A stretch of 64,000 nucleotides of DNA, from the IMG/VR virus record IMGVR_UViG_3300038416_000738; one strand, written 5' to 3'. Position 1 is the first letter of the stretch; each line of letters starts with the position of its first letter. A program made the translations under genes and the position numbers. The notes below the pieces were generated by a model. That model had not been told where the DNA came from and searched no databases. It saw only the letters and a program-made list of their open reading frames with translations. This document shows positions 40,378 to 64,000 of this stretch, in pieces. This DNA is from a virus.

Positions 40378-40698
40378 TTGTTGGTATCTCAACCTGCGAG
40401 GAGGACGGCGATGTGCGAGGCGTGCGACAAGATGGCCGAGTTGGGGAAGATCGCGGGCGCGGCCCGCGACCATGAGGAGGCCGTAGCCGACGTGGCGGAC
40501 GCGGCGATGGCGCTCGCGGGGTCCGACGACGTCGAGATGGGGCCGGAGACGACGAGGGTCCCGACCGCGCTCTTCGAGAAGCTCCTCGAGGTCTGCGCGG
40601 AGCTGGATGTGGCGCAGGAGATCGCGCTCGAGACGCTCGACGCGGCCGTGGCGCGGCTCGGCGAGGCTGGGATCGAGACTGGAGGTCTGTCGTCATGA
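40378..40698 (+). CDS. hypothetical acidic protein
   Basis: ORF track; alt start ATG 40411. Confidence 0.4.
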   Translation: MLVSQPARRTAMCEACDKMAELGKIAGAARDHEEAVADVADAAMALAGSDDVEMGPETTRVPTALFEKLLEVCAELDVAQEIALETLDAAVARLGEAGIETGGLSS

Positions 40699-41060
40699 AA
40701 CCCGGCCGGTTCTTGGTCGCCGCTGTTTTCACGGCATCGTTTTTCGCGTCTTCCTCTTCGGGAGCGCTCGCGCTGCCGGCGGCTCATGCCGGTGATGAGT
40801 CCTTCGGGAGTACCGTCCTCGGCTGTTATCACCCGGGAGCCACGTTCACCTCCGCGACGTACGCGCGCGGACGGGACCGGCATGCTTGGACGGGCTGGAT
40901 CAAGTTCCGCGAGGGTCGTCACGAAGGCTTCGCGATGTCTTTCCAGATGGACATGAAGACGACGCGGGGAGAGACCTTCTATCGCGTCCTGCCGGTCACG
41001 GACGACGGGACGATGCAGGCTGCGTCCGGTTGCTACCTCCGCGAATGGCAGCGGTATTGA
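40695..41060 (+). CDS. secreted hypothetical protein
   Basis: cleavable signal peptide (…ALALPAAHA). Confidence 0.5.
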   Translation: MKPGRFLVAAVFTASFFASSSSGALALPAAHAGDESFGSTVLGCYHPGATFTSATYARGRDRHAWTGWIKFREGRHEGFAMSFQMDMKTTRGETFYRVLPVTDDGTMQAASGCYLREWQRY

Positions 41061-41070
41061 GGAGGATGCT

Positions 41071-41397
41071 ATGACGCCGAAGTCGAGTCGTTTTTGGCAG
41101 AAGCGCGAGAAGCGCTCTTTGGTCGACGCGAAGATGGAGGCCGAGCGCCTCCTTCGGAAGCTCGGTGAGAACAATTTGTCGCCGTCTGCGCGAAGCCTCC
41201 ACGAGCGGCGGCTCAGCGCGGCGCTTCGCGAGTGTGGCCCCTGCCGCGCGACGTGGTTCGAGGGTCGCGCGTTCATCGAGATCGCGCATCGGATGGTCCG
41301 CAAGGCTGCGGCGGTCGTCGGAATCGCTGCTCCGTCGCCCGTCGCGACGCCTCCGAACGCGCGCAGGACGGTCGGTTACTCGCGGAGGATCGCGTGA
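41071..41397 (+). CDS. hypothetical protein
   Basis: ORF track. Confidence 0.4.
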   Translation: MTPKSSRFWQKREKRSLVDAKMEAERLLRKLGENNLSPSARSLHERRLSAALRECGPCRATWFEGRAFIEIAHRMVRKAAAVVGIAAPSPVATPPNARRTVGYSRRIA

Positions 41398-41753
41398 CGC
41401 GCCCCATTCTGGACGACATCAAGCAGCTCCTCCTTGCGCGCGGTTGGAAGATCGACGGTGACGTTCGCGCGAATGCGCAGGGCGAGCTTCACGAGTTCAT
41501 TCATCCTGAAACGAGTCGTCGCCGCGCATGGCTCGACGCCGTCCTCGACGAGGGCGCGCGCGAGATTGCTGGGCCGGGAACCCTGCGCCCTGCCTCCTCG
41601 GCATCGCTTTCGTCGGACCCCGGGCCGAGGATCATGTGCGCGGTCGTGAGGGGCAAGCATACGAATCCCAAATGTTCCTATGCTCAATCGAACACGCTCG
41701 AGCCGAATCCGTGGAGCGGCGAGCACGAACTCAAGGAGGACCTTGGGCCATGA
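41394..41753 (+). CDS. hypothetical protein
   Basis: GTGA overlap. Confidence 0.4.
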   Translation: MTRPILDDIKQLLLARGWKIDGDVRANAQGELHEFIHPETSRRRAWLDAVLDEGAREIAGPGTLRPASSASLSSDPGPRIMCAVVRGKHTNPKCSYAQSNTLEPNPWSGEHELKEDLGP

Positions 41754-41810
41754 AATTCGAGAACGAGAGCACGACACGCCGCGATCTCCCGCCGCGCTGC
41801 CGGCGAGTGG

Positions 41811-42401
41811 ATGCAGCCGATGACGAACGACCCGTGGATCGTCTCGATGCTCATCCAGTCGATCAACGACCACAAGCAGATCGTGGAGAGTCATCCGGCG
41901 TCGCTTTCGTCGCGCATGGCTCGGAAAGACGCTTCGAAGCGTCGCGAGGAACTCTTGCCGCTGCCCGCGCCTTTTTACGTCGTGGACTTGAAGGACGAGT
42001 TCGTCTCGCGCCCGCCGTCTGGAGCCGCGCGTCGTGTTTCGGGTCGCGCGATCGAATGGTCGCATCGCTGGGACGTGCGTGGTCACGAATGTATCCGCAT
42101 TGAACGTGGAGCGGCACCTGCCGATCCGAAGGAGATCACGAAGCTGAAGAAGCGTGGCTATCGCGTCTACGAAGCGGGAGAGATCTCCGCGGACGACGCT
42201 GCGAGGCTCATGAAGCGCGGCGTGCGCGCGCCGGGTCCGCAGGAGTGGATCGCGGTGCTCTCGTACTGGCGCGACGCGTTCGTGAAGGGTCCGGAGTCGC
42301 GGCCGTGCCCGCTGCGCGGGCGGAGGCGCCTTGACGATGCCGACCGGAACACCGATCTCGATCAAGTGCCCGAAATGCAAACGCGGCAAGTGGGGTCGTG
42401 A
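41811..42401 (+). CDS. hypothetical protein
   Basis: ORF track; overlaps next ORF by ~65 nt. Confidence 0.45.
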   Translation: MQPMTNDPWIVSMLIQSINDHKQIVESHPASLSSRMARKDASKRREELLPLPAPFYVVDLKDEFVSRPPSGAARRVSGRAIEWSHRWDVRGHECIRIERGAAPADPKEITKLKKRGYRVYEAGEISADDAARLMKRGVRAPGPQEWIAVLSYWRDAFVKGPESRPCPLRGRRRLDDADRNTDLDQVPEMQTRQVGS

Positions 42402-42627
42402 TCGTAATCGCAAAGGCATCCAAGCTGTCGGTTGCGAAGTGAGGCCGACGCGCTCGCAGCACTCGGGTCACGGTGGCGGCGGTTCCGCGTTTTACGGTCA
42501 TCGTTCGATCGTGTGCTGTCTTGATTGCGGGCATGTATGGCCGACGACGCTCTACACATGGGCACGCATCGACTGGACTCATTGCGCGCGTCCCCATTGT
42601 GACTGCAGGCCGTTTGTGAGAGCTTGA
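42337..42627 (+). CDS. hypothetical Zn-ribbon protein
   Basis: CPKC...CLDCG; start uncertain (TTG 42331 / ATG 42337). Confidence 0.4.
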   Translation: MPTGTPISIKCPKCKRGKWGRDRNRKGIQAVGCEVRPTRSQHSGHGGGGSAFYGHRSIVCCLDCGHVWPTTLYTWARIDWTHCARPHCDCRPFVRA

Positions 42628-42652
42628 CATACCACTTTGCATCTGTTACAGT
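42624..42652 (+). promoter_or_regulatory. sigma70-like promoter TTGACA-N17-TACAGT
   Basis: AT-rich 70-bp island in GC-rich DNA; AAGGAG RBS then ATG 42695. Confidence 0.45.
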
Positions 42653-42694
42653 CATGTGAAGCTGATTGAAGTTGTTTGACTAAAGGAGCACCCC

Positions 42695-42988
42695 ATGAAG
42701 AAGAAGCGGTTCTGCAAGGTCGCGCTCGAGAAGGTCTCGCGCACCGATCTCATCTGCATTGGTTGCGGTAACTTTAGGACGGAATGGGCCATCGTTCCCA
42801 TCGGTGGCGCGGAGCCGGTCGCCGGACTTCACACGAAATGCATTCCCGGGATGCACGTGCGCCACGCGCGGAAACCCAAGACCGAGCAGGCTGTCGCGAA
42901 GGATGCTGCGGGCAGCGTGACGAAGGTGCCCGAAGAGCGGCGATACACGCGTGGGTACGACAAGGACCACGACGGATACACGGGCTGA
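42695..42988 (+). CDS. hypothetical Cys-containing protein
   Basis: ORF track. Confidence 0.45.
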   Translation: MKKKRFCKVALEKVSRTDLICIGCGNFRTEWAIVPIGGAEPVAGLHTKCIPGMHVRHARKPKTEQAVAKDAAGSVTKVPEERRYTRGYDKDHDGYTG

Positions 42989-42996
42989 GCCGGTCC

Positions 42997-43287
42997 ATGG
43001 GAACCTCGAAGGCGGAAATCGGCCACTGGTTCGACAGCGGCAAGCAGCGCGGCGCGACGCACATGATCGTCGTCTGCGACACGTGGGATTGGCAAGACGA
43101 GCCCATCTACATCATGCCCGGCGAGGACGTGGCGGCGAAGTGCGGGACCATCGCGGAGCGCTACAAGCGCGGCGAGAGCATGCTCAAGGTGATGGAGGTC
43201 TACGCGATGCACCTGCCGAAGGAAGACCAGTTGAACGAGTACCGCGCGAAGCACTTCGAGTCCCCGCATCCCGGAGGTTATAAGTGA
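42997..43287 (+). CDS. hypothetical protein
   Basis: ATG 42997 in ORF 42784..43287. Confidence 0.45.
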   Translation: MGTSKAEIGHWFDSGKQRGATHMIVVCDTWDWQDEPIYIMPGEDVAAKCGTIAERYKRGESMLKVMEVYAMHLPKEDQLNEYRAKHFESPHPGGYK

Positions 43288-49299: not shown

Positions 49300-49677
49300 G
49301 TGACCATGAATCGCTTGAAGCCGGCCCTACCGCCTGGCACGCACTACGCGGACAGCAAGAACATCGTCGTGAGGTCGATCGTCGGTACGGACTCGAACAC
49401 CACGTGGCGCGACAACATTCGGAACCTCTTGAAGACGGCGCGCGGCGGAGCCGACAGCGAGTGGCGGCGATTCGGTTACGGTCTCCTTTATGACGTGGTG
49501 GGCTGGACACCGGGCCAATACGCGCTCGGGATGTACGCGGCGCTCCACGACTGCGGGGTGATCCTCTCCAAGAAAAAGTTTGGCGAGAAGGACCTCTCCC
49601 GGATCCGGGAGAAACTCGAGCAAGCAGGTTTCAATCTCGTCCCCGAATGGAAAGCGGCGAGTGGTGGAGCGAAATGA
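49300..49677 (+). CDS. hypothetical protein (partner of nucleotidyltransferase)
   Basis: ORF track; stop overlaps NTase start. Confidence 0.45.
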   Translation: MTMNRLKPALPPGTHYADSKNIVVRSIVGTDSNTTWRDNIRNLLKTARGGADSEWRRFGYGLLYDVVGWTPGQYALGMYAALHDCGVILSKKKFGEKDLSRIREKLEQAGFNLVPEWKAASGGAK

Positions 49678-50624
49678 ATTTCGACGTCGCGTCCCGCACG
49701 ATCCTCCTCGTCCGCCACGGCTCGCACGCCTACGGCATGAATACACCTACGTCGGACTTGGATTCGAAGGGCGTGTGCATCGAGCCGAAGGCATTTCATT
49801 TCGGGTTCCTTCACACGTTCGAGCAAGAGACGCGCGAGGCGAAGAAAGGCGCCGCGGAGGACCGCGTCGTTTACTCGCTCAAGAAGTTCGCGGGGCTCGC
49901 GGCCGAGTGCAACCCGAACATCATTGAGGTGCTCCACGTGGCGGACGAGCACGTGCTCGCTATCGACGCGTTCGGCGAGGAGCTTCGCGCGATGCGGCAC
50001 GCTTTCGTCTCCGCGAAGGCGCGCTGGACATTTGCGGGTTACGCGCACTCGCAATTGAAGCGCATCAAGACGCACCGCAAGTGGCTCGTCGACCCGCCGA
50101 AGGCGCCGCCGACCCGCAAGGAGTTCGGCCTCTCCGAGGTGAGCAAGATCTCGAAGGCCGAGTTGGGCGCGTTCGACGCCGCCGTGGATCAGTCCCTCGA
50201 GATCGAACTCTCGCGCGAGCTGATGACGGTCTTCACGCGCGAGAAGCAGTACCAAGCGGCCAAGAGGCACTACGACCAGTTCGAGAACTGGAAGAAGACG
50301 CGCAACGCCGCGCGCGCCGAACTCGAGGCGAAGTTCGGGCTCGACACGAAGCACGCCGCGCACCTCGTGAGGCTCCTCCGCATGTGCAAGGAGATCATGA
50401 CGACTGGCGAGGTCGTCGTGAAGAGGCCCGACGCCGCGGAGTTTCTCTCCATCCGGGCCGGGGCATGGACCTACGACCAGATCGTCGAGTACGCCGAGAG
50501 GACCGAGGCCGAGTGCGCCGCACTTTACGATGCAGGCGCGACCGTCCGCCACGAACCCGACCGCATCGCCATCGACGCCGCGATCGTGGGCATGACTGAA
50601 CGTTACCTCGCCGCATACGGTTGA
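49674..50624 (+). CDS. Pol-beta-superfamily nucleotidyltransferase
   Basis: 'HGSHAYGMNTPTSDLDSKG' = GS-X10-D-x-D active-site signature of MNT/CD-NTase-type nucleotidyltransferases; 317 aa. Confidence 0.6.
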   Translation: MNFDVASRTILLVRHGSHAYGMNTPTSDLDSKGVCIEPKAFHFGFLHTFEQETREAKKGAAEDRVVYSLKKFAGLAAECNPNIIEVLHVADEHVLAIDAFGEELRAMRHAFVSAKARWTFAGYAHSQLKRIKTHRKWLVDPPKAPPTRKEFGLSEVSKISKAELGAFDAAVDQSLEIELSRELMTVFTREKQYQAAKRHYDQFENWKKTRNAARAELEAKFGLDTKHAAHLVRLLRMCKEIMTTGEVVVKRPDAAEFLSIRAGAWTYDQIVEYAERTEAECAALYDAGATVRHEPDRIAIDAAIVGMTERYLAAYG

Positions 50625-50800: not shown

Positions 50801-51478
50801 GTGAGCGAGTCCGTGCAGAAGAAAAGTGGTGGGTTTCTCGATAAGTTGAAGGGTCTCGTCGCGGAAGAAGTTCCCGACCGCCCCACACGCCAGACGCCGG
50901 TGCCGGCGGCGCCGGCACACGCCGTGCAACACGTGGGACAGGATCATTACGATCCCGCGCCGGGGAGCGCCCTCGTGGGTGCTGATCCTGCGGCGCTCGC
51001 GAAGCTCGAGGCGCGTCTCCAGGCCGCGTGTCCCGCTCCGTACGCCAAGTTCATGGAGCAGTACGATTCGCTCAAGGAAGACATCTCCGACGAGCGCACG
51101 CGCTTCAAGGTCGCCTTGAAGACGACGCACACGACCGGGGTCGAGATCTCCGGAGCCCTCGAGACGCTCCTGTCGGCGATGGACTCCGCGAAGCACGAGT
51201 TCGAGCACTCGTGGGACGAGAACCGGAAGAAGCGCGTCGCCGAGTCCGACCAATCGATCTCGTCCTCCGACGAACTCATCAAGTCGAGCGAGGAGCAGAT
51301 CAAAGCCATCCAGGAGAAGATCGCCGCGCTCCGCACGAAGCGCGACTCGGACGTCGCGAACGCGAAGGAGGAGATCCGTAGGCTCGACGGAATTCGCGGC
51401 GGTTTCGAAGCTGCGCACCACCAGGTGACCTCGCGCCTCTCGAACCTCAAGGAGCGCCTCGCGGCGCTGGGGACCTGA
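50801..51478 (+). CDS. hypothetical coiled-coil protein
   Basis: GTG start; S/E/K-rich heptads. Confidence 0.5.
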   Translation: MSESVQKKSGGFLDKLKGLVAEEVPDRPTRQTPVPAAPAHAVQHVGQDHYDPAPGSALVGADPAALAKLEARLQAACPAPYAKFMEQYDSLKEDISDERTRFKVALKTTHTTGVEISGALETLLSAMDSAKHEFEHSWDENRKKRVAESDQSISSSDELIKSSEEQIKAIQEKIAALRTKRDSDVANAKEEIRRLDGIRGGFEAAHHQVTSRLSNLKERLAALGT

Positions 51479-51479
51479 C

Positions 51480-52523
51480 ATGGCTGAATCGACGATCTCG
51501 AAGCTGCAGAAGAAGGAACTCTTCGGCCAGAACCTCATCACGCTGATCCTCGTGGGTGCGCTCGCGGCCGCAGGGATCTACTGGTGGGGATCGATCGTGC
51601 CGTTCCTCGTTGACGCGGCGACGAACACCCTGAAGCTCATCGGCCTATGCGCCGCGATTGGACTCGTGGGCTACGCTGTCCTCGACAAGCGCATCCGGAC
51701 GCTCTTCCTCTACGGATACCGTTCGCTGACGCGCTGGCTCACGGGGCAGTTCGTCGAGATCGACCCGATCGGTATCCTGAACACGTACGTGTCGCGGCTC
51801 GAGGAGCGACTCGCCGAGATGGACAAGTCCATCGGGAGCCTTCGCGGCCAGCGCGACAAGCTCAAGGCCACGATCGAGAAAAACGAGAGCGATCGAATCC
51901 ACAACCTTCAGCTCGCGCAGCAGGCGCAGAAGCACTCGAAAGACAACGAAGCCGAGATGAAGCAGGAGCTTGCGCTCCGCGCGCGGCAGGCGGGACGTCT
52001 TCAGAAGTCGAACATGACACTCGGCAATCTCCTCGAGCGCATGGAAGTGCTCTTGAAGGCGCTCCAGAAGATGCGTGCGGCTTCGGCGCTCCTTTGCGAA
52101 GACATCAAGGGCGAGGTCGAGGTGAAGACCGCCGAGCGAAAGGCGCTTCTCGCTGGTTACGGTGCCTTCACGAAGGCGCAGGCGATCATGGAGGGCGGGG
52201 GCGCGGAGCGCGAGATGTTCGATCTCACGATGGAGAAGCTCACCGACGATTACGCGAACAAGATGGGCGAGATCGAGACGTTCCTCGACATGTCGAAGGG
52301 CTTCATCAACGGTATGGATCTCGACCAGGGCATCTACGAGGAGGACGCGCTCGCGCAGCTCAAGGCTTGGGAGGAGAAGGGCAGCGCCCTCCTCAACACG
52401 AAGCCGAACGTCCGCGTGGACGCGGCCCCCGGCGTCCGCATCACCGAGGTTGCGGGCGAAGCGGAAGAAGCGGCGCCCGACAGCTTCTCCGAGCTTTTCA
52501 AGAACAACGACGCGAAACGGTAA
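51480..52523 (+). CDS. membrane-anchored coiled-coil protein
   Basis: two N-terminal TM helices then ~250 aa coiled coil. Confidence 0.6.
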   Translation: MAESTISKLQKKELFGQNLITLILVGALAAAGIYWWGSIVPFLVDAATNTLKLIGLCAAIGLVGYAVLDKRIRTLFLYGYRSLTRWLTGQFVEIDPIGILNTYVSRLEERLAEMDKSIGSLRGQRDKLKATIEKNESDRIHNLQLAQQAQKHSKDNEAEMKQELALRARQAGRLQKSNMTLGNLLERMEVLLKALQKMRAASALLCEDIKGEVEVKTAERKALLAGYGAFTKAQAIMEGGGAEREMFDLTMEKLTDDYANKMGEIETFLDMSKGFINGMDLDQGIYEEDALAQLKAWEEKGSALLNTKPNVRVDAAPGVRITEVAGEAEEAAPDSFSELFKNNDAKR

Positions 52524-52539
52524 CGACGCGAAACGGTAA
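52508..52539 (+). repeat. 16-bp tandem duplication CGACGCGAAACGGTAA x2 spanning the stop codon
   Basis: counted directly. Confidence 0.85.
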
Positions 52540-52550
52540 GGACATCCATC

Positions 52551-54329
52551 ATGGCGACTCGAATCAAACCCCTGCCCAAGATCATCGCGGCCGTGGCCAT
52601 CGCTGCGGGCCTTTTCTTCGGGATCCGGTTCCTCGTGAACGCGCAGCCCGGCCACGAAGCTTCCGTGCCGAAGACGGCCGCGCTCCCGACGCTCGACGAG
52701 CATGTCTCGAAGGCCGCTGTGCCCGAAACGCCGCTGCCGGGCGCCGCGCTCGCGGGCAAAGGCACGGACGTGCGCATGATGGTGTGGGCGTGGAACGCGC
52801 AGATGGGACTCCTGTACGCGAACGGCGGCGCCGACACGACGCAGGGCTCGCTCATGGCCGGCCACAACGTGAACCTCCACTTCACCCGCGAGAACGACAC
52901 GAGCAAGATGGCGGCGCAGCTCATGGCCCTCGCGACCGATGTCGCGAAAGGTGGCGAGTCGAAGAACGGCGTCCACTTCATCACGCTCATGGGTGACGGC
53001 ACGCCGAGCTGGTTCGCCGGACTCAACGCGGACCTGAAGAAGATCTGCGCGGACTGCACCGCCGAGACCGTCGGCGTCCTCGGCTACTCGCGCGGCGAAG
53101 ACAAGTTCATGGGACCCGCGGAGTGGAAGTCGAATCCGAAGAAAGCCCAGGGCGCGCTCATCGCGGGCGTCATCCGCGACGGGGACTGGAACGCCGCGAT
53201 GAAATGGGCTGGTGACAACGGGATCCCGAACAACCCGGACGAGAAGACGTACGACCCGGACGCGCTCAACTGGGTGAGTGTGGACGACTACCTCGAGGCC
53301 CCGAAGAAATACATCCTCGGCGTCTGCGAAGACCGTCCCGTCGTGCACGCCGGCCACAAGACCGGGCAGACGAAGAACGTGTGCGTGAACGGCGTCGTCA
53401 CGTGGACCCCCGGCGACGTGAACGTCGCGCAGCAGAAGGGCGGCCTCGCGAGCATCGTCTCGACGAAGGAGTACCGGAGCCAGATGCCGTGCGCGCTCAT
53501 CGGAATCCGGAAGTGGGATCGCGCGCACAAGGACGTCGTCGAGGGGATCCTCCAGGCGGCCTTTGACGGCGGCGACCAGGTGCGGAGCTACCCGCGCGCG
53601 CTCGACCGCGGCGGCGAGATCAGCGCGGCGGTCTACAAGGAGGAGAGCGGCGCGTACTGGGTCAAGTACTTCAAGGGCGTCACCGAGAACGACAAGACGG
53701 GCCTGCCGGTGCCGCTCGGCGGATCGTCGGTCTCCGATCTCGCCGACGACATGCAGGTCTTCGGTCTCACGGCAGGCTCCACAAACCTTTTCGCCGCGAC
53801 GTACACGACGTTCGGCGACATCGCCGTCCAGCAGTACCCGAAGCTCGTGCCGAACTACCCGCCTGTCGCGGACGTGCTCGACACGTCCTATGTCGAGGAT
53901 CTCGCGAAGAAGGCCCCAGTGATGACGACGTCCGCGGACGTGGCCGTCTACAAGAAGGATGCGGCGATCACGGAAGTCGTCTCGAAGAAGAGCTGGTCGA
54001 TCACGTTTCAGACGGGGAGCGCGGCCTTCACGCCGGAAGCGCAGAAGACGCTCGACGCACTTGAGAAGGACCTCGTCATCACGGACCTCATGGTGGAGAT
54101 CGACGGTCACACGGACAACACCGGCGACGCCACGGGGAACAAGACGCTTTCCGAGGCGCGTGCCCAGGCGGTGAAGGCGTGGCTCATGAAGCAGTCGACG
54201 ACGAACTTTCCCGCCGACCGCTTCAGCGTCAAATCGTTCGGGCAGGACAAGCCCGTCGCGTCGAACGACACGGAGACGGGTCGCGCGAAGAACCGCCGCG
54301 TCGACGTCATCATGGGGTCGGGGAACTGA
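52551..54329 (+). CDS. membrane-anchored protein with C-terminal OmpA-like domain
   Basis: N-terminal TM; C-terminal '[18 protein letters not shown]...[10 protein letters not shown]' OmpA/MotB signature; central ~400 aa domain unassigned (possibly SBP-like). Confidence 0.75.
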
Positions 54330-54721
54330 TGGCGATCGAGCCGCACGTCCTCTCCGTGTCGACGGCCGTGTCGAGCCGTGCTCGCGAGCTTCGGAGCTAC
54401 GGCAAGTGGCTCGAGGACGCAAGCATCGGGGGTCAAACGGAAGCTGTCGCGCGCGACGTCGCTCCCGTGCTTCTCGCGGCGGCGGACGTGATCGACGCGG
54501 CGCTGGGAGCGGCGCTGGCTAAGCATCGTGAACCCGCAGCGCGCCGCGAAGTGAAGCTCGTCGGCGTGGCGGACATCCCGACTCAGGACATGCGCTACGA
54601 CCTCCGCGCGCTCGGCATCGACGTCGGGAAGTTGACCGACGTGGAAGTCCGTCGCGAATTCGAAGACCGTTTCGGTTCGATCTTTCCCAAGAACCCCAAT
54701 ATTCCTCATCCGGATCGGTGA
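54329..54721 (+). CDS. hypothetical protein
   Basis: TGATG overlap. Confidence 0.45.
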   Translation: MAIEPHVLSVSTAVSSRARELRSYGKWLEDASIGGQTEAVARDVAPVLLAAADVIDAALGAALAKHREPAARREVKLVGVADIPTQDMRYDLRALGIDVGKLTDVEVRREFEDRFGSIFPKNPNIPHPDR

Positions 54722-54725
54722 AACG

Positions 54726-55013
54726 ATGAAGAATCCCATCGAGAGGCTCGAGGAGAGCGTTGCAATCTTGCTTCCGGGCGCGAAAGCGTCGCTCGATCGT
54801 CCGAAGAATCTCGAGAGCGGCCATTGGTGGCTCGACATCTCCGAGAGCGGGCGCCACGCTGTCGTGGAGTGGCGCCCGGGCAAAGGCTTTGGCGTCAGTC
54901 TTCTTGGTAAGAACGACGGTTACGGTGAGGGGCCCGACGAGGCGTTCACCGAGAGCCAAGAGGATGACGTTCTCAAGAGAATCTTCGCGCTCCTCACCCG
55001 GAAGGAGGCGTGA
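54726..55013 (+). CDS. hypothetical protein
   Basis: ORF track. Confidence 0.4.
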   Translation: MKNPIERLEESVAILLPGAKASLDRPKNLESGHWWLDISESGRHAVVEWRPGKGFGVSLLGKNDGYGEGPDEAFTESQEDDVLKRIFALLTRKEA

Positions 55014-55298
55014 ATGAAGACCGCGAAGCTCTTTGAGCGGATGAACGCAGGCACGGAGGAGTCACGCCTACTCCGTGAGGCCTACGAGGCCGGCGCCGTT
55101 GCAGCAGCCGACCACGCTGACCAGTACAACGGATCAACGACACACGAATACTGCCTTGGCGACTGCATCCTCAGCAAGATGAACATCCGGAAACGTCGTC
55201 CGAGGAAGAACGAGCGCAAGATCCTCTCCCACAAAGAGCTTCTCGAAGTCCTCGGTCCGCGGCGTCGGGGCAAAGTGATCGTGTACCTCCCGAGGTGA
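55014..55298 (+). CDS. hypothetical protein
   Basis: ORF track. Confidence 0.4.
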   Translation: MKTAKLFERMNAGTEESRLLREAYEAGAVAAADHADQYNGSTTHEYCLGDCILSKMNIRKRRPRKNERKILSHKELLEVLGPRRRGKVIVYLPR

Positions 55299-55525
55299 AT
55301 GCGATGAGCGAATCGAACGAAAGCCGGACGCATGAACTCGAGAAGGACGCCCTCACGGGAGACCGTCAAGCCGTGATGAGGCTCGTGTCGGACTACCGAC
55401 TCGTCCGCGCGAAGATCGAATGGGTGAAGAATCTCCAGTATCGCGACGGCACGATCGACGGCGTGAACGCGCATCAGTTCTTCAGCGAGGTAGAGGACAT
55501 CTTGGTCGGGGAGGACGACGAGTGA
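55295..55525 (+). CDS. hypothetical protein
   Basis: ORF track. Confidence 0.4.
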   Translation: MNAMSESNESRTHELEKDALTGDRQAVMRLVSDYRLVRAKIEWVKNLQYRDGTIDGVNAHQFFSEVEDILVGEDDE

Positions 55526-55698
55526 AGCTCACGGCTCGAGAGAAGCGCGCGATCTCGGAACTCGAGAAGCTCGCGAAGCGATGGCCGAAGAAGCTCGTTC
55601 TTTTCTCCTGGTCGGGAACCCTTCATGTTCTCAAGCCGGGAAAATCTCGCACGATGGGACAGGCCATCGTTGCCACTTTCGGCAGCATATCCTCATGA
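55522..55698 (+). CDS. hypothetical small protein
   Basis: GTGA overlap. Confidence 0.3.
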   Translation: MKLTAREKRAISELEKLAKRWPKKLVLFSWSGTLHVLKPGKSRTMGQAIVATFGSISS

Positions 55699-55958
55699 CA
55701 CTCTATGAACCTCAGGGCTATACGCCCGAAGAGCTAAAGCGACACGGCGAGATGATTGCAGACCGCCTCGCGCTGACACCCGAGCAGGTCAAATGCCTCG
55801 TGCCCGAGCTTCGCAACGCGCTCGCCCCCGCAGTGATGGGCATGGGGACGGATGGTCCGCGCACGGAGGAAGACGTTCTCGACATCCGGCGCGCCTTCGC
55901 CCGCATCGTCGCGCTCGCGAACGCGCTCGCAGTGAGATGTTCTTCGGGGGAGCGATAG
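55695..55958 (+). CDS. hypothetical protein
   Basis: ATGA overlap. Confidence 0.4.
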   Translation: MTLYEPQGYTPEELKRHGEMIADRLALTPEQVKCLVPELRNALAPAVMGMGTDGPRTEEDVLDIRRAFARIVALANALAVRCSSGER

Positions 55959-56200
55959 TGGTGAAGACGTACCAAGCCGGGAAGCTGTCGCCCGAAGAGG
56001 CGCGCATGAAGACGAACGAGTACTTCGTCCTCGGCCTTTATGAATGCTTCGCGCTCGGTAACCCCGCCGGCGCGGAGGTCTTCTGGCGTGCCGCGCTGGA
56101 TGTTTGGGAGCACCGTGGCTTTGCCGCGTCGAGACGACGGTACCTGCAGTGGTTCGAGAACGCCCTTGCGAGAGGAGGGTGGGATGACTGCTGCGATTGA
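55937..56200 (+). CDS. hypothetical protein
   Basis: alt GTG 55958. Confidence 0.4.
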   Translation: MFFGGAIVVKTYQAGKLSPEEARMKTNEYFVLGLYECFALGNPAGAEVFWRAALDVWEHRGFAASRRRYLQWFENALARGGWDDCCD

Positions 56201-56600
56201 AAAGCCTTCGTGGCCGTGGTGGGCCGTCGCTGGTGGGCTCGGGGTTTACTATTTCAGCAAATATTTTGGAGTGAAGCAGATGCAAGAGATTCTCAAGGAG
56301 TTGGAGGAGACGCGCTCGGCTCGTGACGCAGCGGTCGCGACCGCGGGGCAAGCGATGGTGCTCGTCGCGAGCCTCACGGCGCTCGAGAAGCTCTTGCGCG
56401 GCAAGCTCAAGGCCGTAGAGGACGCGCTGAAGAAAGAGCGCGAGGACTCTATGGAGGCGCACCACAAGAACTTCGAGGCGCGCCAGAACCTCGAGAAGGC
56501 GAACGAGGATTGGAAACGCAAGCATGCCGACCTCGAAGCGCGCTGCGCCGAACTCGAAGCGAAGCTCAAGGAGAAGAAAGTCAAAGTTCCTGCCCGATGA
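56184..56600 (+). CDS. membrane-anchored coiled-coil protein
   Basis: N-terminal TM then coiled coil. Confidence 0.5.
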   Translation: MTAAIEKPSWPWWAVAGGLGVYYFSKYFGVKQMQEILKELEETRSARDAAVATAGQAMVLVASLTALEKLLRGKLKAVEDALKKEREDSMEAHHKNFEARQNLEKANEDWKRKHADLEARCAELEAKLKEKKVKVPAR

Positions 56601-56821
56601 AAGAAGAGATGTTCGAGGCTTTCCACGTGATCGAGCTGGCGCCCGGTACCTATTTCTGCGGTTCGCAGGACGCGGACAAGAAAGTCCGGTGGGCTTCCGT
56701 CGGCACTCCTCTGCTCGCTAAACGCGCGGATCCCGCACGCGGCGATCTGACGGAAATCCAGAAGGTCTTTCCCCAAGCACGATTCGTTTACGTCCGCACC
56801 ACCTGGAGCCTCGGTTCATGA
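56597..56821 (+). CDS. hypothetical protein
   Basis: ATGA overlap. Confidence 0.4.
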   Translation: MKEEMFEAFHVIELAPGTYFCGSQDADKKVRWASVGTPLLAKRADPARGDLTEIQKVFPQARFVYVRTTWSLGS

Positions 56822-57597
56822 GCTTCCGCGACGCGTGGATCCCGAATGGTCGCGTTTCGAAACGCGTTCACCTGATTTTCGGGGCAGCGACCGTCGTTCT
56901 GCTCATCGCGGCTTGGGCGATGCGCCCGGCTTTCTTGCCCGGTCCTCTGGACGTCGTGCATGCGTTTCCGAACCTTGTCGACCAAGGTCTCTTGCCGCAG
57001 CTCTTCGTCTCGCTCTCGACGAACTTCCAGGCCATCGGTCTGTCGTGCCTCCTCACGCTGCCGCTCGCGTACCTCACGGTGCTGCCGGCGGTGCGCCCGT
57101 TCGTCCGCGCGCTCTCGAAGATGCGTTTCCTCGGCCTCACGGGCTTCGTCGTTCTTTTCACGATCCTCTTTGGCGGGGGCCACGGACTGAAGGTTGCGCT
57201 CCTCGTCTTCGGCATGGGCGTCTTCCTCGTCACGAGCCTCTACGATGTCGTCGAGGCGATCCCGCGCGAGGAGTTCGACCACGCGCGGACGCTCCGGATG
57301 GGGCCGTGGGGGAGCGTCGTCGAGGTCGTCGTGCTCGGCCACCTCGACGCCGTGATCGACGCGGTTCGCCAGAACGCGGCGATGGGTTGGGTGATGCTCA
57401 CGCTCGTCGAGGGGCTCGTGCGGTTCGAGGGCGGCCTCGGGTCGATGATGCTCGCTGAGGACAAGCACATCCGCCTCGACTCGGTCTTCGCGATCCAGAT
57501 CGTCGTCCTCGGCGTCGGCGTCGCGCAGGACTTCGCCTTCGTGTGGCTCAAGAAGATCCTCTGCCCGTACGCGAGCCTTACCTTGGAGAGGCAATGA
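56818..57597 (+). CDS. ABC transporter permease (TauC/SsuC-like, BPD_transp_1)
   Basis: 6 TM helices; 'EAIPREEFDHARTLRMGPW' EAA-loop motif characteristic of binding-protein-dependent permeases. Confidence 0.8.
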   Translation: MSFRDAWIPNGRVSKRVHLIFGAATVVLLIAAWAMRPAFLPGPLDVVHAFPNLVDQGLLPQLFVSLSTNFQAIGLSCLLTLPLAYLTVLPAVRPFVRALSKMRFLGLTGFVVLFTILFGGGHGLKVALLVFGMGVFLVTSLYDVVEAIPREEFDHARTLRMGPWGSVVEVVVLGHLDAVIDAVRQNAAMGWVMLTLVEGLVRFEGGLGSMMLAEDKHIRLDSVFAIQIVVLGVGVAQDFAFVWLKKILCPYASLTLERQ

Positions 57598-57929
57598 CGC
57601 CCGAGCATGAATTGTTCTTCGGCTGCCTTGGCGTGCTCGTCGTCAGCGCGGGCCTCTTCGCCGGTATCGTTGTCTGGGCGCTGAAGGGCGGCGGCAAACC
57701 CATCAAGGGTCTGCCGCGAGCGCCGAGCTACGCGTTCACGTGCGTCTTCGGCGCGCTCTGGAACGCGATCATCGTGAGGTCGCTGCCGGGCACCATTTTC
57801 TGCTTGGCGCTCGCGGGACTATTCCAATTGGGAAGTGGGTGGTCGTACCGGCGCCAGACGTGGACCGTGGCATCGGTCATCGCGGGAGTTGCGATCGTGT
57901 TCGACATCTGGCTCGTGAGGTCCCTGTGA
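57594..57929 (+). CDS. hypothetical membrane protein
   Basis: 3 TM helices. Confidence 0.45.
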   Translation: MTPEHELFFGCLGVLVVSAGLFAGIVVWALKGGGKPIKGLPRAPSYAFTCVFGALWNAIIVRSLPGTIFCLALAGLFQLGSGWSYRRQTWTVASVIAGVAIVFDIWLVRSL

Positions 57930-58180
57930 CGTTTGTCGACGAGCTTGCCCAGGCCGCGCTGCGCGGGTTCTTCGGCGACGCCGAGGGCTTCAAGAACATG
58001 GATCAGGACGCCTCGCGCAAGGCCGCTGCGCGCGAGGTGCGGAAGGTCCTCACCCGGTACTTCTCGTGGTGGGCGCCGCAACCAGAAGTCACGAAGAAGT
58101 CAGAAGTCCATCGTCCCATCATCGCTAAACAGATATCCGCCCACACGAACGGCGTGGGCGGGAAGAAGGAGCACTCATGA
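57926..58180 (+). CDS. hypothetical protein
   Basis: GTGA overlap. Confidence 0.35.
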   Translation: MTFVDELAQAALRGFFGDAEGFKNMDQDASRKAAAREVRKVLTRYFSWWAPQPEVTKKSEVHRPIIAKQISAHTNGVGGKKEHS

Positions 58181-58545
58181 TCAAGCACCAAGTCCACTCG
58201 AAGTTCAAAGTCTTCATCTCTGACGCGGAGAGTGAGGACGCCGTGGAACAACTCTTCCGTCAAGCGGACGTCTTCACCAAGGACAACAGCGTCGCGCCGA
58301 AGAGCATCGGTGTCGAATACCTCGAAGGACAGAAGCGCCTCATCCTCAGCATCGGGTATCGCGACGACGAGCCGGGGTACCCCGTGAACCTGAAGTCCGT
58401 GCTCCTCGGCAAGCTCGCGATGAACTCGTCCACGATCGAGGCAGCGTTGGAAAAGGCGGCGGACGAGACGGACAACGTCATCTGCCACGAGTTCTTCGTC
58501 ACCGAGGGCGGCGACTTCGTGATGGTGCTCCTCTCGCACGGGTGA
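58177..58545 (+). CDS. hypothetical protein
   Basis: ORF track. Confidence 0.45.
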   Translation: MIKHQVHSKFKVFISDAESEDAVEQLFRQADVFTKDNSVAPKSIGVEYLEGQKRLILSIGYRDDEPGYPVNLKSVLLGKLAMNSSTIEAALEKAADETDNVICHEFFVTEGGDFVMVLLSHG

Positions 58546-58546
58546 C

Positions 58547-58864
58547 ATGAAACTGCGGAAAGAAAAAGACTTCGTTCCGACGTTGCTTCTCGTGTTTGGA
58601 CCACCCCGCGTCGTCTTCTCCATGGACGAGTGGGAGGAGGAAGTGGATCGGCAGAAGCTCCTCGCCGCTGTCGGCCTGCTTCGCCGTTGGGACGGCCGGA
58701 CATGGGGCTGGTCGATGGCCGTGAGGGCGAAGGAAGACGGGCGCGAGGGCAAGCAGGTGTGGCACTGGTCGAGCAGCGGCAATTTCATGGAATCGAAACA
58801 CGTTGGTGTTGAAGATTTCGAGCGCGCGTGGGCGGAAGTCACAGGCAAGAGGCGCGCGTCATGA
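58547..58864 (+). CDS. hypothetical protein
   Basis: ORF track. Confidence 0.4.
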   Translation: MKLRKEKDFVPTLLLVFGPPRVVFSMDEWEEEVDRQKLLAAVGLLRRWDGRTWGWSMAVRAKEDGREGKQVWHWSSSGNFMESKHVGVEDFERAWAEVTGKRRAS

Positions 58865-59118
58865 AATGTCCGCGATGCGATATCGAATTGGTGACGAAGT
58901 ATGGCCGTGAGGTGCACTGGGATGATCGGGATTGCGTCGAACATCTCCAGCGACACCTCCGCGCCCTTCGCGCTGAAGTCGCACGCAAGGACGCGGCGCT
59001 CGAGAAGCTCCTGGACTTGATGGACAAATGGAGCCCCGATACGGCGATTCACATTCTGCACGCAGCCCTCGCCCCGGCTGCGGAGTCGGAGTTCAAAGGG
59101 GTGCCGGTGACGCCGTGA
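58861..59118 (+). CDS. hypothetical protein with N-terminal CxxC
   Basis: ATGA overlap. Confidence 0.4.
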   Translation: MKCPRCDIELVTKYGREVHWDDRDCVEHLQRHLRALRAEVARKDAALEKLLDLMDKWSPDTAIHILHAALAPAAESEFKGVPVTP

Positions 59119-59924
59119 ATCACGAGTACAAGGACGTCCTCATCAGCATCCAAAACGTGGGCCTGTCGTACGGCGGCAAGCCGATCCTCGAGGATCTGTC
59201 CGCGGAGGTGCGCGACATCGTTCGGCCTGATGTCGTGACGGGGCAGGTCATCGGCGTGCTCGGGCCGAGCGGGATCGGTAAGACGCAGCTCTCGCGGATT
59301 ATGACGGGGCTTCAAGAGCCGACGTCGGGCGAGATCCTCGTGGGCGGCAAGAAGGTCGCGGCCGGCGTCGTCGGTTACGTCGCGCAGAATTACCCGCTCC
59401 TTCGCCACAAGACCGTCCTCGGCAACCTGAAGGTGGCGGCGCGCCGCGCCGGCGCGTCGGGCGAGGGGGCGGCGCAGAAATCGAACGACATGCTCTCGAA
59501 GTTCGGGCTCGCGGACAAGGCGCTCGATTTCCCCGCGGAGCTTTCCGGCGGCCAGCGGCAACGCGTCGCCATCGCGCAGCAGCTCCTCTGCTCCGAACAC
59601 TTCCTCATCCTCGACGAGCCGACGACGGGTCTCGATCCCATCATGAAGGACAAGGTGTGCGAACTCATCAAGCAGGTTGCATCGCTCTCAGAAGAGAACA
59701 CGATCTTCGTCGTGACGCACGACATCGCCGCGATCCTCACCATCGCCGATCACCTCTGGCTCCTCGGGCGAACGCGCGACGGCGAGGGACGCTCGCTCGG
59801 CGCGAAGATCCTCCACACGTACGATCTCATCGAGCGCGGCCTGGCGTGGCAGGAGCGCCCGCAAGACCTGCCCGCGTTTGCGGAGATGCAAAGGGAAGTG
59901 CGCGAGCGCTTCGCGACGCTATGA
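59115..59924 (+). CDS. ABC transporter ATP-binding protein (TauB/SsuB-like)
   Basis: Walker A 'GPSGIGKT', signature 'LSGGQRQR', Walker B 'LILDEPT', H-loop 'VTHD'. Confidence 0.85.
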   Translation: MNHEYKDVLISIQNVGLSYGGKPILEDLSAEVRDIVRPDVVTGQVIGVLGPSGIGKTQLSRIMTGLQEPTSGEILVGGKKVAAGVVGYVAQNYPLLRHKTVLGNLKVAARRAGASGEGAAQKSNDMLSKFGLADKALDFPAELSGGQRQRVAIAQQLLCSEHFLILDEPTTGLDPIMKDKVCELIKQVASLSEENTIFVVTHDIAAILTIADHLWLLGRTRDGEGRSLGAKILHTYDLIERGLAWQERPQDLPAFAEMQREVRERFATL

Positions 59925-60217: not shown

Positions 60218-60549
60218 TGCTCGACATCGAGGTCATCCGGAAACGCATCTCGAAACCCACACCCGCGATCATCTCGTCGGACGAGGACGACACGCCGGAG
60301 CAGGCGCGTGACCTCGAGATCCGTAACCAGAACATCCTGGCGTGGGCCGAAGATCGCCGTGACCTTGCTCGCGCACTCGCGGAGATCGAGCGCCTCGAAG
60401 ACGAGAACGCGCTCCTCAAGAAATCGGCGGAGCCGGAGATGCTCGCGCTCCTCGAGCGCTTCTTCGCATGCCTCGATCAAAAGCAAGAGATCGAAGGAGA
60501 GATGCGCGCCCTCGTGACCGTGGCGAAGGTTACCAAGGTCTTGCCTTGA
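60217..60549 (+). CDS. hypothetical coiled-coil protein
   Basis: TAATG overlap. Confidence 0.4.
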   Translation: MLDIEVIRKRISKPTPAIISSDEDDTPEQARDLEIRNQNILAWAEDRRDLARALAEIERLEDENALLKKSAEPEMLALLERFFACLDQKQEIEGEMRALVTVAKVTKVLP

Positions 60550-61217
60550 TCACGTTCGCGATCCTCCTCGGCGTTTTCGTGGGCCTCATGATGTTCGCGA
60601 TTCCGGTGCTCGCCGGCAGGCGCGCGCCACCGAGGTCGATCGCGCCCATCGAGACGCCCTACATCCGGGCCGCGGTTCACGAGGCGGGCCACGTCGTCGC
60701 CGCGTGGAGCTGCACGTTCGTGCGCAACATGCCCGAGGTCCTCGTCCGCATGGAGGGGTCGGGGCACGTGCAGATCGCGTACTTCAACATCGGCAAGCCC
60801 GACGAGCGATGGTGTTACCTCGCGATCCTCCTCGCGGGCGCCGCGGCCGAGGCGACGATCTTCAAGAAAGGGCGGAGCGCTCAAGCGGCGTCCGACCTCC
60901 GCGCAGCCCTCGCGGAAGCCAAAGCGATCGGCGACGCATCGCCGCCTTGGAAGCCGATCGAGACGGGCGCGTCGATCGACTTCGTTCGGCTCTTTCAAGA
61001 GCCGCTTGATCCGAAGGTGCTCGGGGTCCTCGTGCAGGGTTACCGCATGAGCAAGCGCCTCGTCCTGCGCAAGCGAGCGAGGCCGTTCCACCAGACGGTC
61101 TCGATGCTCATCGCCTCGGGGCGGGCGTCCGAGGCCCAGCTCGAGAAGATCCTCGGCTCGCGTTTCGTGGCGCGCTCGGTCGCGCCGCTCGGCGCCCGGT
61201 TCGTGGGGCTCGGATGA
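60546..61217 (+). CDS. membrane-anchored HExxH metallopeptidase (FtsH/M41-like peptidase domain)
   Basis: N-terminal TM; 'AVHEAGHVVAAW' then '~75 aa' then 'LAILLAGAAAEATIF' parallels FtsH 'YHEAGHA...LLGGRAAEE'; start uncertain (TTG 60546 / ATG 60588). Confidence 0.55.
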   Translation: MITFAILLGVFVGLMMFAIPVLAGRRAPPRSIAPIETPYIRAAVHEAGHVVAAWSCTFVRNMPEVLVRMEGSGHVQIAYFNIGKPDERWCYLAILLAGAAAEATIFKKGRSAQAASDLRAALAEAKAIGDASPPWKPIETGASIDFVRLFQEPLDPKVLGVLVQGYRMSKRLVLRKRARPFHQTVSMLIASGRASEAQLEKILGSRFVARSVAPLGARFVGLG

Positions 61218-62713: not shown

Positions 62714-62916
62714 GGAAGAGAATGTCGTTCAAGGGACATCGTGAAGTTGAGAGCGCTCTCGGTCGCCTCGCGCCAGGCGATCGTCGTGAGCTTGAACTCT
62801 TCCTCCGGTACAGGCGACTCGTGGGCGAAGCTGTGCGTGCGGGTTGCACGATCCGGGAAGCCGAGCGCGCGATCTATCCCGACGTCTATCTCGGGTCGAG
62901 CGAGGAGCGGCCGTGA
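62710..62916 (+). CDS. hypothetical protein
   Basis: ATGA overlap. Confidence 0.4.
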   Translation: MRKRMSFKGHREVESALGRLAPGDRRELELFLRYRRLVGEAVRAGCTIREAERAIYPDVYLGSSEERP

Positions 62917-64000
62917 AATCGATCCCCGTCTTCTACACGCCCAAGATGGTCGTCAGCTCCGAGCGCGCCTCGCCGAGCGCGGGCAAACCGGCCGCCGTCG
63001 TCGCGTCATGGAAAGAAAAATTCCCGATCGAGATCGTCGAACCCATACCCGTCACCGTGGTCGAACTCGCGCGGGCACACGATCGCAAATTCGTGGAGGA
63101 CGTGCTCGCTTGCCGCGCGCCGAACGGCTTCGGCAATCGATCGCGTGAGGTCGCGGACTCGCTCCCCTACACGTCGGGCGCGATGCTCTCGGCGGCGCGC
63201 CGCGCGCTCGAGACGAAGAGCGTGGCAGCGGCGCCGTGTTCGGGTTTCCATCACGCGGGCCACGCGCGGGCGGAAGGGTTCTGCACGTTCAACGGGCTCA
63301 TGGTGACGGCGCTTGCCCTGAAAGAGGAGAAGCTCGCTGAGAGCGTAGGCATTCTCGACCTCGACATGCATTACGGCAACGGCACCGACAACATCATCCA
63401 GAAGCTCGGAATCGATTGGGTCCATCACTTCACCGCGGGCATGAACTGGACGCGGCCCGACCAGGCGAAGGTGTTCCTGGAAGAGGGGCTCGAGGAGAAT
63501 CTCGACCGGATAGTGGTCAACAACGTCGACATCGTCCTCTACCAAGCCGGCGCTGACCCACACATCCACGACCCGTACGGCGGGTGGCTGACGACCGAGC
63601 AGCTCCGCGAGCGTGACAGGATCGTCTTCCAGACGTTCTTCGATTACGGGATCCCCGTCGCGTGGAACCTCGCGGGCGGCTACCAGGTGGAGGAAGACGG
63701 GAGCATCCCGAAGGTGCTCGAGATCCACGACCACACGATGTTCGAGTGCATGAATTGTGACGGATACGAGGACGTCGAGCAGTTTCGGCAGGAGCGAGAA
63801 CAGCCGACCGGTTTCCAGATCGTGGACATCACTGTCGGGTCCACGTGGCTCTACGTTTCGCTCGCGCGCGCATCCAGTGAATATGTTCTTCTCGTGCAGC
63901 GCGATCGTTTCGAACGGATTCGCAAGGCGACGACGGAGCAGCTCCAGCGTTACGAGCTTCTCGCGGACGGAAGCGCGGTCCACTGGCCAGCGATCGACGA
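62913..64000 (+). CDS. histone-deacetylase-family (HDAC/acetylpolyamine amidohydrolase-like) protein, 3' partial
   Basis: GTGA overlap start; 'CSGFHHAGHARAEGFCTFNG' and 'ILDLDMHYGNGTDNI' match the HDAC-fold catalytic HH and D-x-H...D metal-binding motifs; runs off window end. Confidence 0.7.
   Translation, partial: MKSIPVFYTPKMVVSSERASPSAGKPAAVVASWKEKFPIEIVEPIPVTVVELARAHDRKFVEDVLACRAPNGFGNRSREVADSLPYTSGAMLSAARRALETKSVAAAPCSGFHHAGHARAEGFCTFNGLMVTALALKEEKLAESVGILDLDMHYGNGTDNIIQKLGIDWVHHFTAGMNWTRPDQAKVFLEEGLEENLDRIVVNNVDIVLYQAGADPHIHDPYGGWLTTEQLRERDRIVFQTFFDYGIPVAWNLAGGYQVEEDGSIPKVLEIHDHTMFECMNCDGYEDVEQFRQEREQPTGFQIVDITVGSTWLYVSLARASSEYVLLVQRDRFERIRKATTEQLQRYELLADGSAVHWPAID

Follow-up and report, generated by a model that had tools for sequence, protein, structure and literature searches.

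Do the parts of an ATP-binding cassette (ABC) importer that lie scattered among small open reading frames (ORFs) in a viral contig belong to one system, and which system would it be? This question was raised by a 64,000-nucleotide stretch (hereafter, the window) of the IMG/VR virus record IMGVR_UViG_3300038416_000738, in which genes for an OmpA-fused protein, a permease, and an ATPase are kept apart by groups of small ORFs. According to the analysis described here, positions 50801-59924 of the window are probably one functional module on a huge-phage-like element, namely the phage-type (P-type) form of the PspA-associated ABC transport system, consisting of a dyad of two upstream genes followed by the genes for the binding protein, permease, and ATPase (Table 1). 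The original prediction, made from the letters of the window, had listed the last three components, and all three were found where it had placed them, with eight and five small ORFs between them in the source gene calls; the list was incomplete, however, as the two partner genes upstream (50801-52523) had been missed.

Table 1. Positions of the module genes, of the inserted ORFs, and of other features referred to in the text (window numbering unless another record is given; aa, amino acids)
Feature	Position	Strand	Evidence or remark
225-aa coiled-coil protein, first gene of the module	50801..51478	+	Synteny, hhalign
347-aa predicted membrane-anchored PspA/Vipp1-like protein, ESCRT-III superfamily	51480..52523	+	hhalign, Foldseek, homologues
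592-aa binding component	52551..54329	+	Pfam OmpA, AlphaFold model, Foldseek
Insert A, eight small co-directional ORFs	54329..56821	+	Source gene calls
259-aa ABC permease, probably of the NitT/TauT family, type I importer membrane domain	56818..57597	+	NCBIfam, phrog_6743, homologues
Insert B, five small co-directional ORFs	57594..59118	+	Source gene calls
122-aa ORF in insert B	58177..58545	+	L089 homologue
269-aa ABC ATPase, nucleotide-binding subunit	59115..59924	+	Pfam ABC_tran, phrog_293
Ku	2920-3705		DNA-handling set
FtsK/SpoIIIE	5334-7316		DNA-handling set
Dam-type methylase	14433-15392		DNA-handling set
SNF2 helicase	18357-20228		DNA-handling set
Dihydrofolate reductase (DHFR)	21074-21691		DNA-handling set
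RsoM2USA gp52-gp55 (L095)	RsoM2USA record, 40202-43079		All four annotated hypothetical

The OmpA-fused protein of 592 amino acids (aa) was divided into an N-terminal signal/anchor helix, a disordered linker, an NMT1/NrtA/TauA-type domain (approximately residues 65-455), and an OmpA-like domain (residues 485-582). The OmpA-like domain scored 73.6 bits in Pfam (cut-off, 27.2), and the N-terminal part of approximately 400 aa gave no match in Pfam or NCBIfam. The AlphaFold model of the protein, obtained with 37 homologues, had a predicted local distance difference test (pLDDT) score of 84.5 and showed a two-lobe binding-protein fold, for which Foldseek returned NrtA (2g29), TauA (6ssy), CmpA, and SsuA as the best solved structures (probability, 1.0; target-normalised TM-score, 0.61-0.77), together with OmpA-like domains. 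Residues D522 and R537, which we take to be the positions that bind diaminopimelate in OmpA-like domains, were unchanged across the 37 homologues, and the C-terminal domain is accordingly listed here as a predicted peptidoglycan binder. More than 2700 full-length homologues of the binding protein were obtained; no full-length viral counterpart of the fusion protein was present in BFVD, and no full-length homologue of it was present among the 72,556 plasmids of PLSDB. Because of its NrtA/TauA fold, its synteny with permease and ATPase genes in approximately 80 loci, and the NMT1_2 and NMT1 matches of its homologue in Lak megaphages, the OmpA-fused protein is the binding component of the ABC set, as had been proposed.

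The permease has at least five hydrophobic segments. It gave no Pfam match at E ≤ 0.01 and no match in a sequence search against the Protein Data Bank (PDB), and was assigned by phrog_6743 (E, 2.3e-13) and by NCBIfam matches to SaoP (4.9e-12), SsuC (1.7e-3), and TauC (0.018), all far under the curated cut-offs. Homologues with 72-75% identity carry the Joint Genome Institute (JGI) name 'NitT/TauT family permease', some of them match PF00528, and the permease of locus L091 was marked BPD_transp_1 (weak). The ATPase was matched by Pfam ABC_tran (E, 1.6e-26; 93.9 bits; cut-off, 25) and by phrog_293, 'ABC transporter' (4.3e-53). Walker A (GPSGIGKT), signature (LSGGQRQR), Walker B (FLILDEP), and H-loop (VTHD) motifs were read in its translation, so that together with the Q-loop the full series of motifs of such a subunit is in place. 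Both proteins had been called TauC/SsuC-like and TauB/SsuB-like, a description that did not hold in the sense of orthology. Against the NCBIfam equivalogs, the permease scored 14.5 bits for TauC (cut-off, 342) and 17.8 bits for SsuC (347), and the ATPase scored 114.6 bits for TauB (357) and 108.3 bits for SsuB (395); judged from these scores, the ABC set is not orthologous to TauABC/SsuABC. The module shares the binding-domain fold, probably the permease family, and a generic ABC ATPase with TauABC/SsuABC and NrtABCD/CmpABCD, but its binding protein is predicted to be tethered to peptidoglycan instead of being free or a lipoprotein, and neither tauD/ssuDE nor nitrate-assimilation genes lie beside it.

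The bacterial distribution of the set was determined by scanning one genome per bacterial species, and 409 loci were obtained, mostly from Acidobacteriota, Armatimonadota, and Myxococcota, to whose chromosomal genes the ABC proteins of the window are approximately 50-55% identical. Some of these loci lie on contigs of 1.7-4.9 Mb beside housekeeping genes such as catalase. Permease and ATPase genes were both held by approximately 70 of the 80 loci fetched, most of which had all three genes, and the remainder were mostly short contigs. The bacterial gene order was either binding protein-permease-ATPase or permease-ATPase-X-binding protein, and permease and ATPase were adjacent in all 70 cellular-type loci. 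Pairwise distance matrices of the three proteins from 71 loci were correlated with each other (Mantel r, 0.76-0.82; p=0.001), and the five loci nearest to the window were the same for each protein. For the permease and ATPase the value was 0.81 (p=0.001), and by this value and the shared five nearest relatives the two were found to belong to one system and not to different transporter families. As judged from these sequence comparisons, the binding protein, permease, and ATPase are one cognate, co-inherited set.

Clustering of the neighbouring genes of the bacterial loci gave the families F4, F5 (PspA), binding protein, permease, ATPase, F3, and F6 (AAA ATPase). An ABC operon associated with PspA and AAA+ and containing a protein that combines a PBPb domain with an OmpA domain was described by comparative genomics (Ravi et al. 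2024, mSystems, PMC11237479, section 18; example, OGG56892.1), and the bacterial gene order obtained here agrees with that operon. No experimental work on it was found in the literature. The module of the window resembles the published operon in the binding protein-OmpA fusion, in the permease and ATPase families, and in the adjacent PspA-family and F4-like genes. It differs from the operon in having a membrane-anchored PspA variant, in being split by 13 small ORFs, and in being located on a phage-like element, and also lacks the F3 protein (transmembrane plus helical) and the two-domain AAA+ ATPase: no homologue of F6 or F3 was detected by tblastn in the 64-kb window, and the other phage-type loci were likewise without both. 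No metabolic neighbour pointing to a substrate was found at the loci.

The first gene of the dyad encodes a 225-aa protein for which Pfam gave no family at cut-off. Its counterparts are the bacterial family F4 (87.5%, E 3.5e-6, by hhalign), the 231-aa protein of Lak megaphages, and gp55 of the Ralstonia phage RsoM2USA, and the gene is kept directly upstream in L003, L005, L072, L077, L081, L089, L090, and L091. The second gene encodes a protein of 347 aa with two N-terminal transmembrane helices (starts, residues 14 and 50), after which the all-helical model forms a long hairpin. By hhalign it was matched to the bacterial PspA family F5 (91.8%, E 7.4e-7), which itself scored 56.7 bits against Pfam PspA_IM30; PF04012 matches were found in 10 of 41 homologues, and some homologues carry the JGI name 'phage shock protein A'. 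When the AlphaFold model (pLDDT, 76.7) was searched against the PDB with Foldseek, the top ten matches were all Vipp1 structures, with PspA structures lower down, and the target-normalised TM-score to 8qhx was 0.78. By profile and predicted fold, the 347-aa protein would be a relative of PspA/Vipp1 (ESCRT-III) at the superfamily level. It shares the long helical hairpin fold and profile similarity with PspA/Vipp1 (IM30), but has two transmembrane helices at the N-terminus in place of an amphipathic helix and is without PspBCF partners. Its comparison with bacterial F3 gave no meaningful match, and the profiles of bacterial F3 and F4 gave only coiled-coil noise against the PDB. Both genes are conserved with the trio in the closest relatives of the window, and the dyad belongs to the module. 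The only PLSDB plasmid with a homologue of the transmembrane PspA-like protein was the 582-kb plasmid of Burkholderia sp. M701 (NC_022995.1, 306785-307558; 26% identity; E, 7e-13).

The same arrangement was then sought in phage genomes. In a huge phage of 462 kb and 25% guanine-plus-cytosine (GC) content (GenBank LR756500.1), proteins of 253, 368, 604, 91, 256, and 274 aa are encoded in the same order. In Lak megaphages, a homologue of the 347-aa protein was present in 15 of 15 records, and the order in Lak-A1 is 231, 354, 109, 529, 150, 278, and 314 aa. The Lak-A1 binding protein passes the Pfam cut-offs of NMT1_2, NMT1, and OmpA, and hhalign matched the Lak dyad to that of the window with 97.1% (231 aa versus 225 aa) and 99.8% (354 aa versus 347 aa). 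The Lak module is thus homologous to that of the window and has the same order, including the two upstream genes and a binding protein with NMT1_2 and OmpA domains, whereas the identity is only 23-29%, the Lak host belongs to Bacteroidota and the GC content is 27%, and the genes for binding protein and permease are separated by just one small ORF, those for permease and ATPase by none. In the Lak paper of 2018 these genes were annotated as a "three subunit NitT/TauT system", and the paper is silent on the OmpA fusion and the PspA-like neighbours. The module was also not mentioned in two jumbo-phage papers (PMC7824862 and PMC11748809).

A partial module was found in RsoM2USA (MG752970.1), a cultured jumbo phage of Ralstonia, in which gp55 and gp54 were matched to the dyad profiles by hhalign with 98.8% (E 5.7e-17) and 99.9%, respectively. 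After gp55-gp54 follow gp53, a small proline-rich membrane protein, and gp52, a binding protein of the NMT1_3/TAXI type; no permease or ATPase gene was found within 5 kb on either side of gp52-gp55. As in the window, a coiled-coil and transmembrane-PspA dyad is followed by an NMT1-superfamily binding protein, and a TROVE/Ro60 gene (gp57) is located nearby as on the window contig, but this binding protein belongs to the TAXI/NMT1_3 type and lacks an OmpA domain. Relatives at 70% identity were listed in IMG/VR, with viral contigs of 479-529 kb, and the P-type gene order was also present on soil contigs of 150-620 kb. All five core genes are intact and under purifying selection, and very different huge phages keep them in this order. 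A neighbour-joining tree built from the concatenated proteins had all bacterial-type loci in one clade grouped by phylum, outside which lay those of the P-type (LR756500.1, L007, the window clade, and L072, L077, and L081); this tree was rooted by midpoint only and gives no direction of transfer. With this placement, recent capture from a host chromosome is not supported.

Some of these loci gave further observations. Locus L004 (IMGVR_UViG_3300035182_002586, 528,957 bp) stops exactly at the stop codon of the permease gene, and its parent contig L003 (JGI Ga0373636_0000001, 620,031 bp) runs on into the ATPase gene; automated trimming appears to have cut through a cellular-looking operon. L072, L077, and L081, which were binned as metagenome-assembled genomes (MAGs) of Acidobacteria, have a compact dyad and trio with gaps of approximately 100 and 33 bp among small unannotated ORFs, and may be either mis-binned phage sequence or a hint of Acidobacteriota hosts.

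The two interrupted junctions of the window were compared with those of the other loci. According to the source gene calls, the gap between binding protein and permease is 2488 bp and holds eight ORFs (130, 95, 94, 73, 87, 80, 138, and 74 aa), and that between permease and ATPase is 1517 bp and holds five (111, 84, 122, 105, and 85 aa), of which the 111-aa ORF encodes a multi-pass membrane protein. In 70 cellular-type loci the median permease-ATPase gap was approximately 10 bp and none exceeded 304 bp; for the binding protein-permease gap the median was 32 bp and the largest value, among 53 loci, 2321 bp. Compared with these, the layout of the window is exceptional. In the phage-type loci the gaps ranged over 22-3131 bp and 6-1517 bp for the binding protein-permease and permease-ATPase junctions, respectively, and the numbers of ORFs at the two junctions were 0 and 1 in L090, 4 and 2 in L091, 5 and 3 in L089, and 8 and 5 in the window; near-contiguous relatives were L003, L006, L088, and L090. 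The binding-protein gene was found on 19 contigs, the neighbourhood seen in the window is common to 12 places, and loci from samples ERZ27250144 and ERZ27249777 match the window. A chimeric assembly was ruled out by the presence of the same layout in several independent assemblies. One cellular-type locus, L042 (9704-12041; a Chthonomonadales MAG), has a 2.3-kb insertion between binding protein and permease, and this junction can therefore be interrupted outside phages too.

Relatives of the 13 inserted ORFs were sought in the window and in 90 other loci. None was found for any ORF of insert A, and in insert B only the 122-aa ORF was matched, by a 124-aa ORF of L089 located at the same place directly upstream of the ATPase gene (57% identity; ratio of nonsynonymous to synonymous substitutions (dN/dS), 0.40). 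This shared ORF apart, the insert content is unrelated between lineages. Among 1.84 billion proteins, the 122-aa ORF gave 162 cluster representatives at E ≤ 1e-3, mostly stand-alone proteins of approximately 120 aa, and it had no match in Pfam or PHROG. Each ORF of insert A has a coding-type pattern of GC content at the three codon positions (GC1>GC2<GC3), and its GC3 lies in the range 0.68-0.81, as does that of most of the 13 inserted ORFs, versus 0.84-0.91 for the core genes. The lower GC3 of most inserted ORFs is compatible with a more recent arrival or with weaker expression. In insert B, stop and start codons overlap by 4 nucleotides (nt) at four of the five junctions of neighbouring ORFs and at both junctions with permease and ATPase, and the genes between 55958 and 61417 all adjoin or overlap their successors, in most cases by 4 nt. 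The chained overlaps suggest a single translationally coupled unit, and the tight co-directional packing with 4-nt overlaps probably keeps the stretch as one transcription unit. A search of 50.5-61.5 kb for repeats that might mark cassette boundaries or duplicated junctions returned only short matches at the level of chance, and a scan of the sequence gave no promoter-like sites and terminator-like sites only in the number expected from shuffled sequence.

The three ABC proteins are 77-82% identical to those of L089, whose inserts differ. The dN/dS values against L089 were 0.20 for the permease, 0.28 for the ATPase, and 0.20-0.28 for the three ABC genes, with a dS that strong GC3 bias may distort. 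Pseudogenisation was ruled out by the intact motifs and low dN/dS. Because of the overlaps, the GC3 values, the dN/dS values, and the lineage-specific inserts, the module is regarded as intact and maintained, and its scattering as secondary accretion at two permissive junctions. Hyperplastic regions and the accretion of 'morons' are found in T4-like and other large phages. The inserts of the window resemble these in being small, fast-turnover, lineage-specific ORFs between conserved, undisrupted genes, but differ in that they lie inside an operon whose products must assemble stoichiometrically, and in that no flanking repeats, promoters, or terminators were found.

The window has a GC content of 63%, its credible genes are almost all on the plus strand, and most of its ORFs are small and without a family match. 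Apart from the DNA-handling set (Table 1), an RlaP nucleotidyltransferase is encoded in it. An ArdC-like antirestriction gene is located at the start of the contig (L093, 1-323), and a Mg-chelatase/ComM-like ATPase is encoded upstream of the window. Such a combination is compatible with a huge phage and with a conjugative giant element alike. No tRNA gene was found by a scan of the window, and an Rfam search of the whole window gave no match. Terminase, portal, and capsid genes were sought among approximately 30 window proteins and in the 10-kb flanks, out of a contig of 261.5 kb, and none was found; the 10 kb past each end of the window hold RNA-repair and DNA-metabolism genes and no virion genes. 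No match was obtained by megablast of positions 50-62 kb against GenBank phages. RNA-repair-like genes surround the module, with the RlaP gene upstream (49647-50624) and a Ro60/TROVE-vWA protein and an RNA ligase approximately 4-7 kb downstream (L092, 13288-16669, just past the end of the window). A gene of the histone-deacetylase family lies a few kb 3' of the module both in the window (62913-64000, running off the end), where it is fused to DUF2442, and in L003 (15725-16609). At 60546-61217 is encoded a 223-aa protein with an N-terminal transmembrane helix, an HEAGH zinc-protease motif, and only a faint resemblance to the protease domain of FtsH (E, 0.017), whose gene is joined by 4-nt overlaps to the genes 3' of the ATPase.

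As a phage-type PspA-associated ABC transport system, the module might work as follows. The binding protein would be exported by its N-terminal helix and held on peptidoglycan by its OmpA-like domain, and its NrtA/TauA-like domain would capture a small solute and hand it over to the permease, a dimer driven by a dimer of the ATPase. On the cytoplasmic face of the same membrane, the PspA-like protein would act together with the coiled-coil protein, and the two might stabilise or remodel this membrane during a long infection. On this reading, the operon was compact ancestrally and two of its junctions have repeatedly taken up unrelated small genes, lineage by lineage. Several points weigh against this interpretation. 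As F3 and the AAA+ ATPase are missing, PspA may be coupled in another way or may not be coupled. The 347-aa protein itself has no Pfam match at E ≤ 0.01 (the gathering score of PF04012 is not reached), its fold matches are marginal (E, 2.5e-3), and long helical proteins can yield spurious profile matches. No riboswitch or regulatory clue to the ligand was found with Rfam in the window and eight bacterial loci. We infer the phage nature of the window contig from its relatives, as terminase, capsid, and tRNA genes were not found in the window or the 10-kb flanks, and the nearby ArdC-like and FtsK genes are also compatible with a conjugative element. Co-transcription was deduced from gene packing only, and the GC3 bias noted above bears on the dN/dS values.

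Of the other explanations weighed, three concern function. The genes might be plain auxiliary genes for nutrient uptake, a NitT/TauT importer that boosts the supply of nitrate, bicarbonate, sulfonate, taurine, or the like to the host and has no tie to PspA. This is suggested by the fold, which is nearest to NrtA, TauA, CmpA, and SsuA, by the name NitT/TauT given to the system by JGI and in the Lak paper, and by phrog_293, the ABC ATPase family of phages, being classed among auxiliary metabolic genes; however, the matches to characterised subfamilies are far under the curated cut-offs (permease, 14-18 bits, and ATPase, 108-115 bits, versus 342-395), neither Pfam nor NCBIfam has a family for the binding domain, and the peptidoglycan-anchor fusion and the adjacency to PspA-like and F4-like genes are kept in three bacterial phyla and in phages of 25% to 63% GC. 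Such conservation is hard to explain without functional coupling, and simple uptake is considered unlikely, though it overlaps in part with the favoured PspA-associated transport system, in which import may still be the biochemical activity. Slightly less doubtful, and put forward as a tentative idea, is that the five-gene set is an envelope-maintenance machine of jumbo and huge phages, in which the ABC complex physically links peptidoglycan and the inner membrane to a PspA polymer made by the phage, and nutrient uptake is not the main purpose. Lak megaphages, LR756500.1, and soil elements of 150-620 kb have the set, as in part does RsoM2USA; such coupling, if true, would preserve the integrity and energised state of the host membrane while a long infection lasts. 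A device without transport, in which a peptidoglycan-tethered ABC complex and an ESCRT-III-like polymer transmit force or a signal by ATP in the manner of FtsEX or LolCDE, would account for the peptidoglycan anchor, which is unusual for an importer, for the constant association with PspA, and for the retention of the dyad and binding protein by RsoM2USA with no dedicated permease or ATPase nearby. It is nevertheless improbable: the permease is probably of the type I importer family, whose members act together with a cognate binding protein, the two-lobe solute-receptor fold is retained in the binding domain with high model confidence, and the membrane domains of FtsEX- and Lol-type systems differ in fold from a type I importer permease.

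The remaining two explanations concern history. The original prediction had offered gene capture followed by accretion of small element genes or, as an alternative that may or may not hold, a repurposed transporter-like machine. Accretion into a once compact operon is supported by the near-contiguous relatives, whereas recent capture of a host tau/ssu-type operon is not: the 50-55% identity to bacterial chromosomal genes and the clearly inserted small ORFs would agree with it, but the window clade lies outside a bacterial clade that is ordered by phylum, the phage-type order with the transmembrane-PspA dyad is common to Lak and LR756500.1, and the genes are not tau/ssu orthologues, which together make recent capture highly improbable. 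Still harder to credit is a decaying operon, the remnants of which have ceased to cooperate and survive by chance alongside unrelated cargo. Gaps of 2.5 kb and 1.5 kb, which are without precedent among the loci examined, might be read in this way, yet the reading frames and catalytic motifs are intact, dN/dS is low, the identity to L089 is high in spite of different inserts, and the core genes keep the highest GC3 of the region.

The Lak 'NitT/TauT transporter' and the bacterial PspA-linked ABC operon are found here to be the same system. The module has been seen before, and the phage-type form is a variant of that system. The interleaving is attributed to ordinary phage genome plasticity; it shows an operon for a multi-subunit complex tolerating repeated insertion of unrelated small genes at its junctions, and is a useful warning where genes are annotated by operon or proviruses are trimmed automatically. 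Of more interest as a lead is how widely the module recurs in huge phages, and RsoM2USA, which is cultured and carries part of the module, is usable for experiments. Huge phages that are very distant from each other have the phage-type form, and PLSDB, the plasmid database searched, does not contain it, which makes it a candidate for a shared function of large phages that touches the host envelope.

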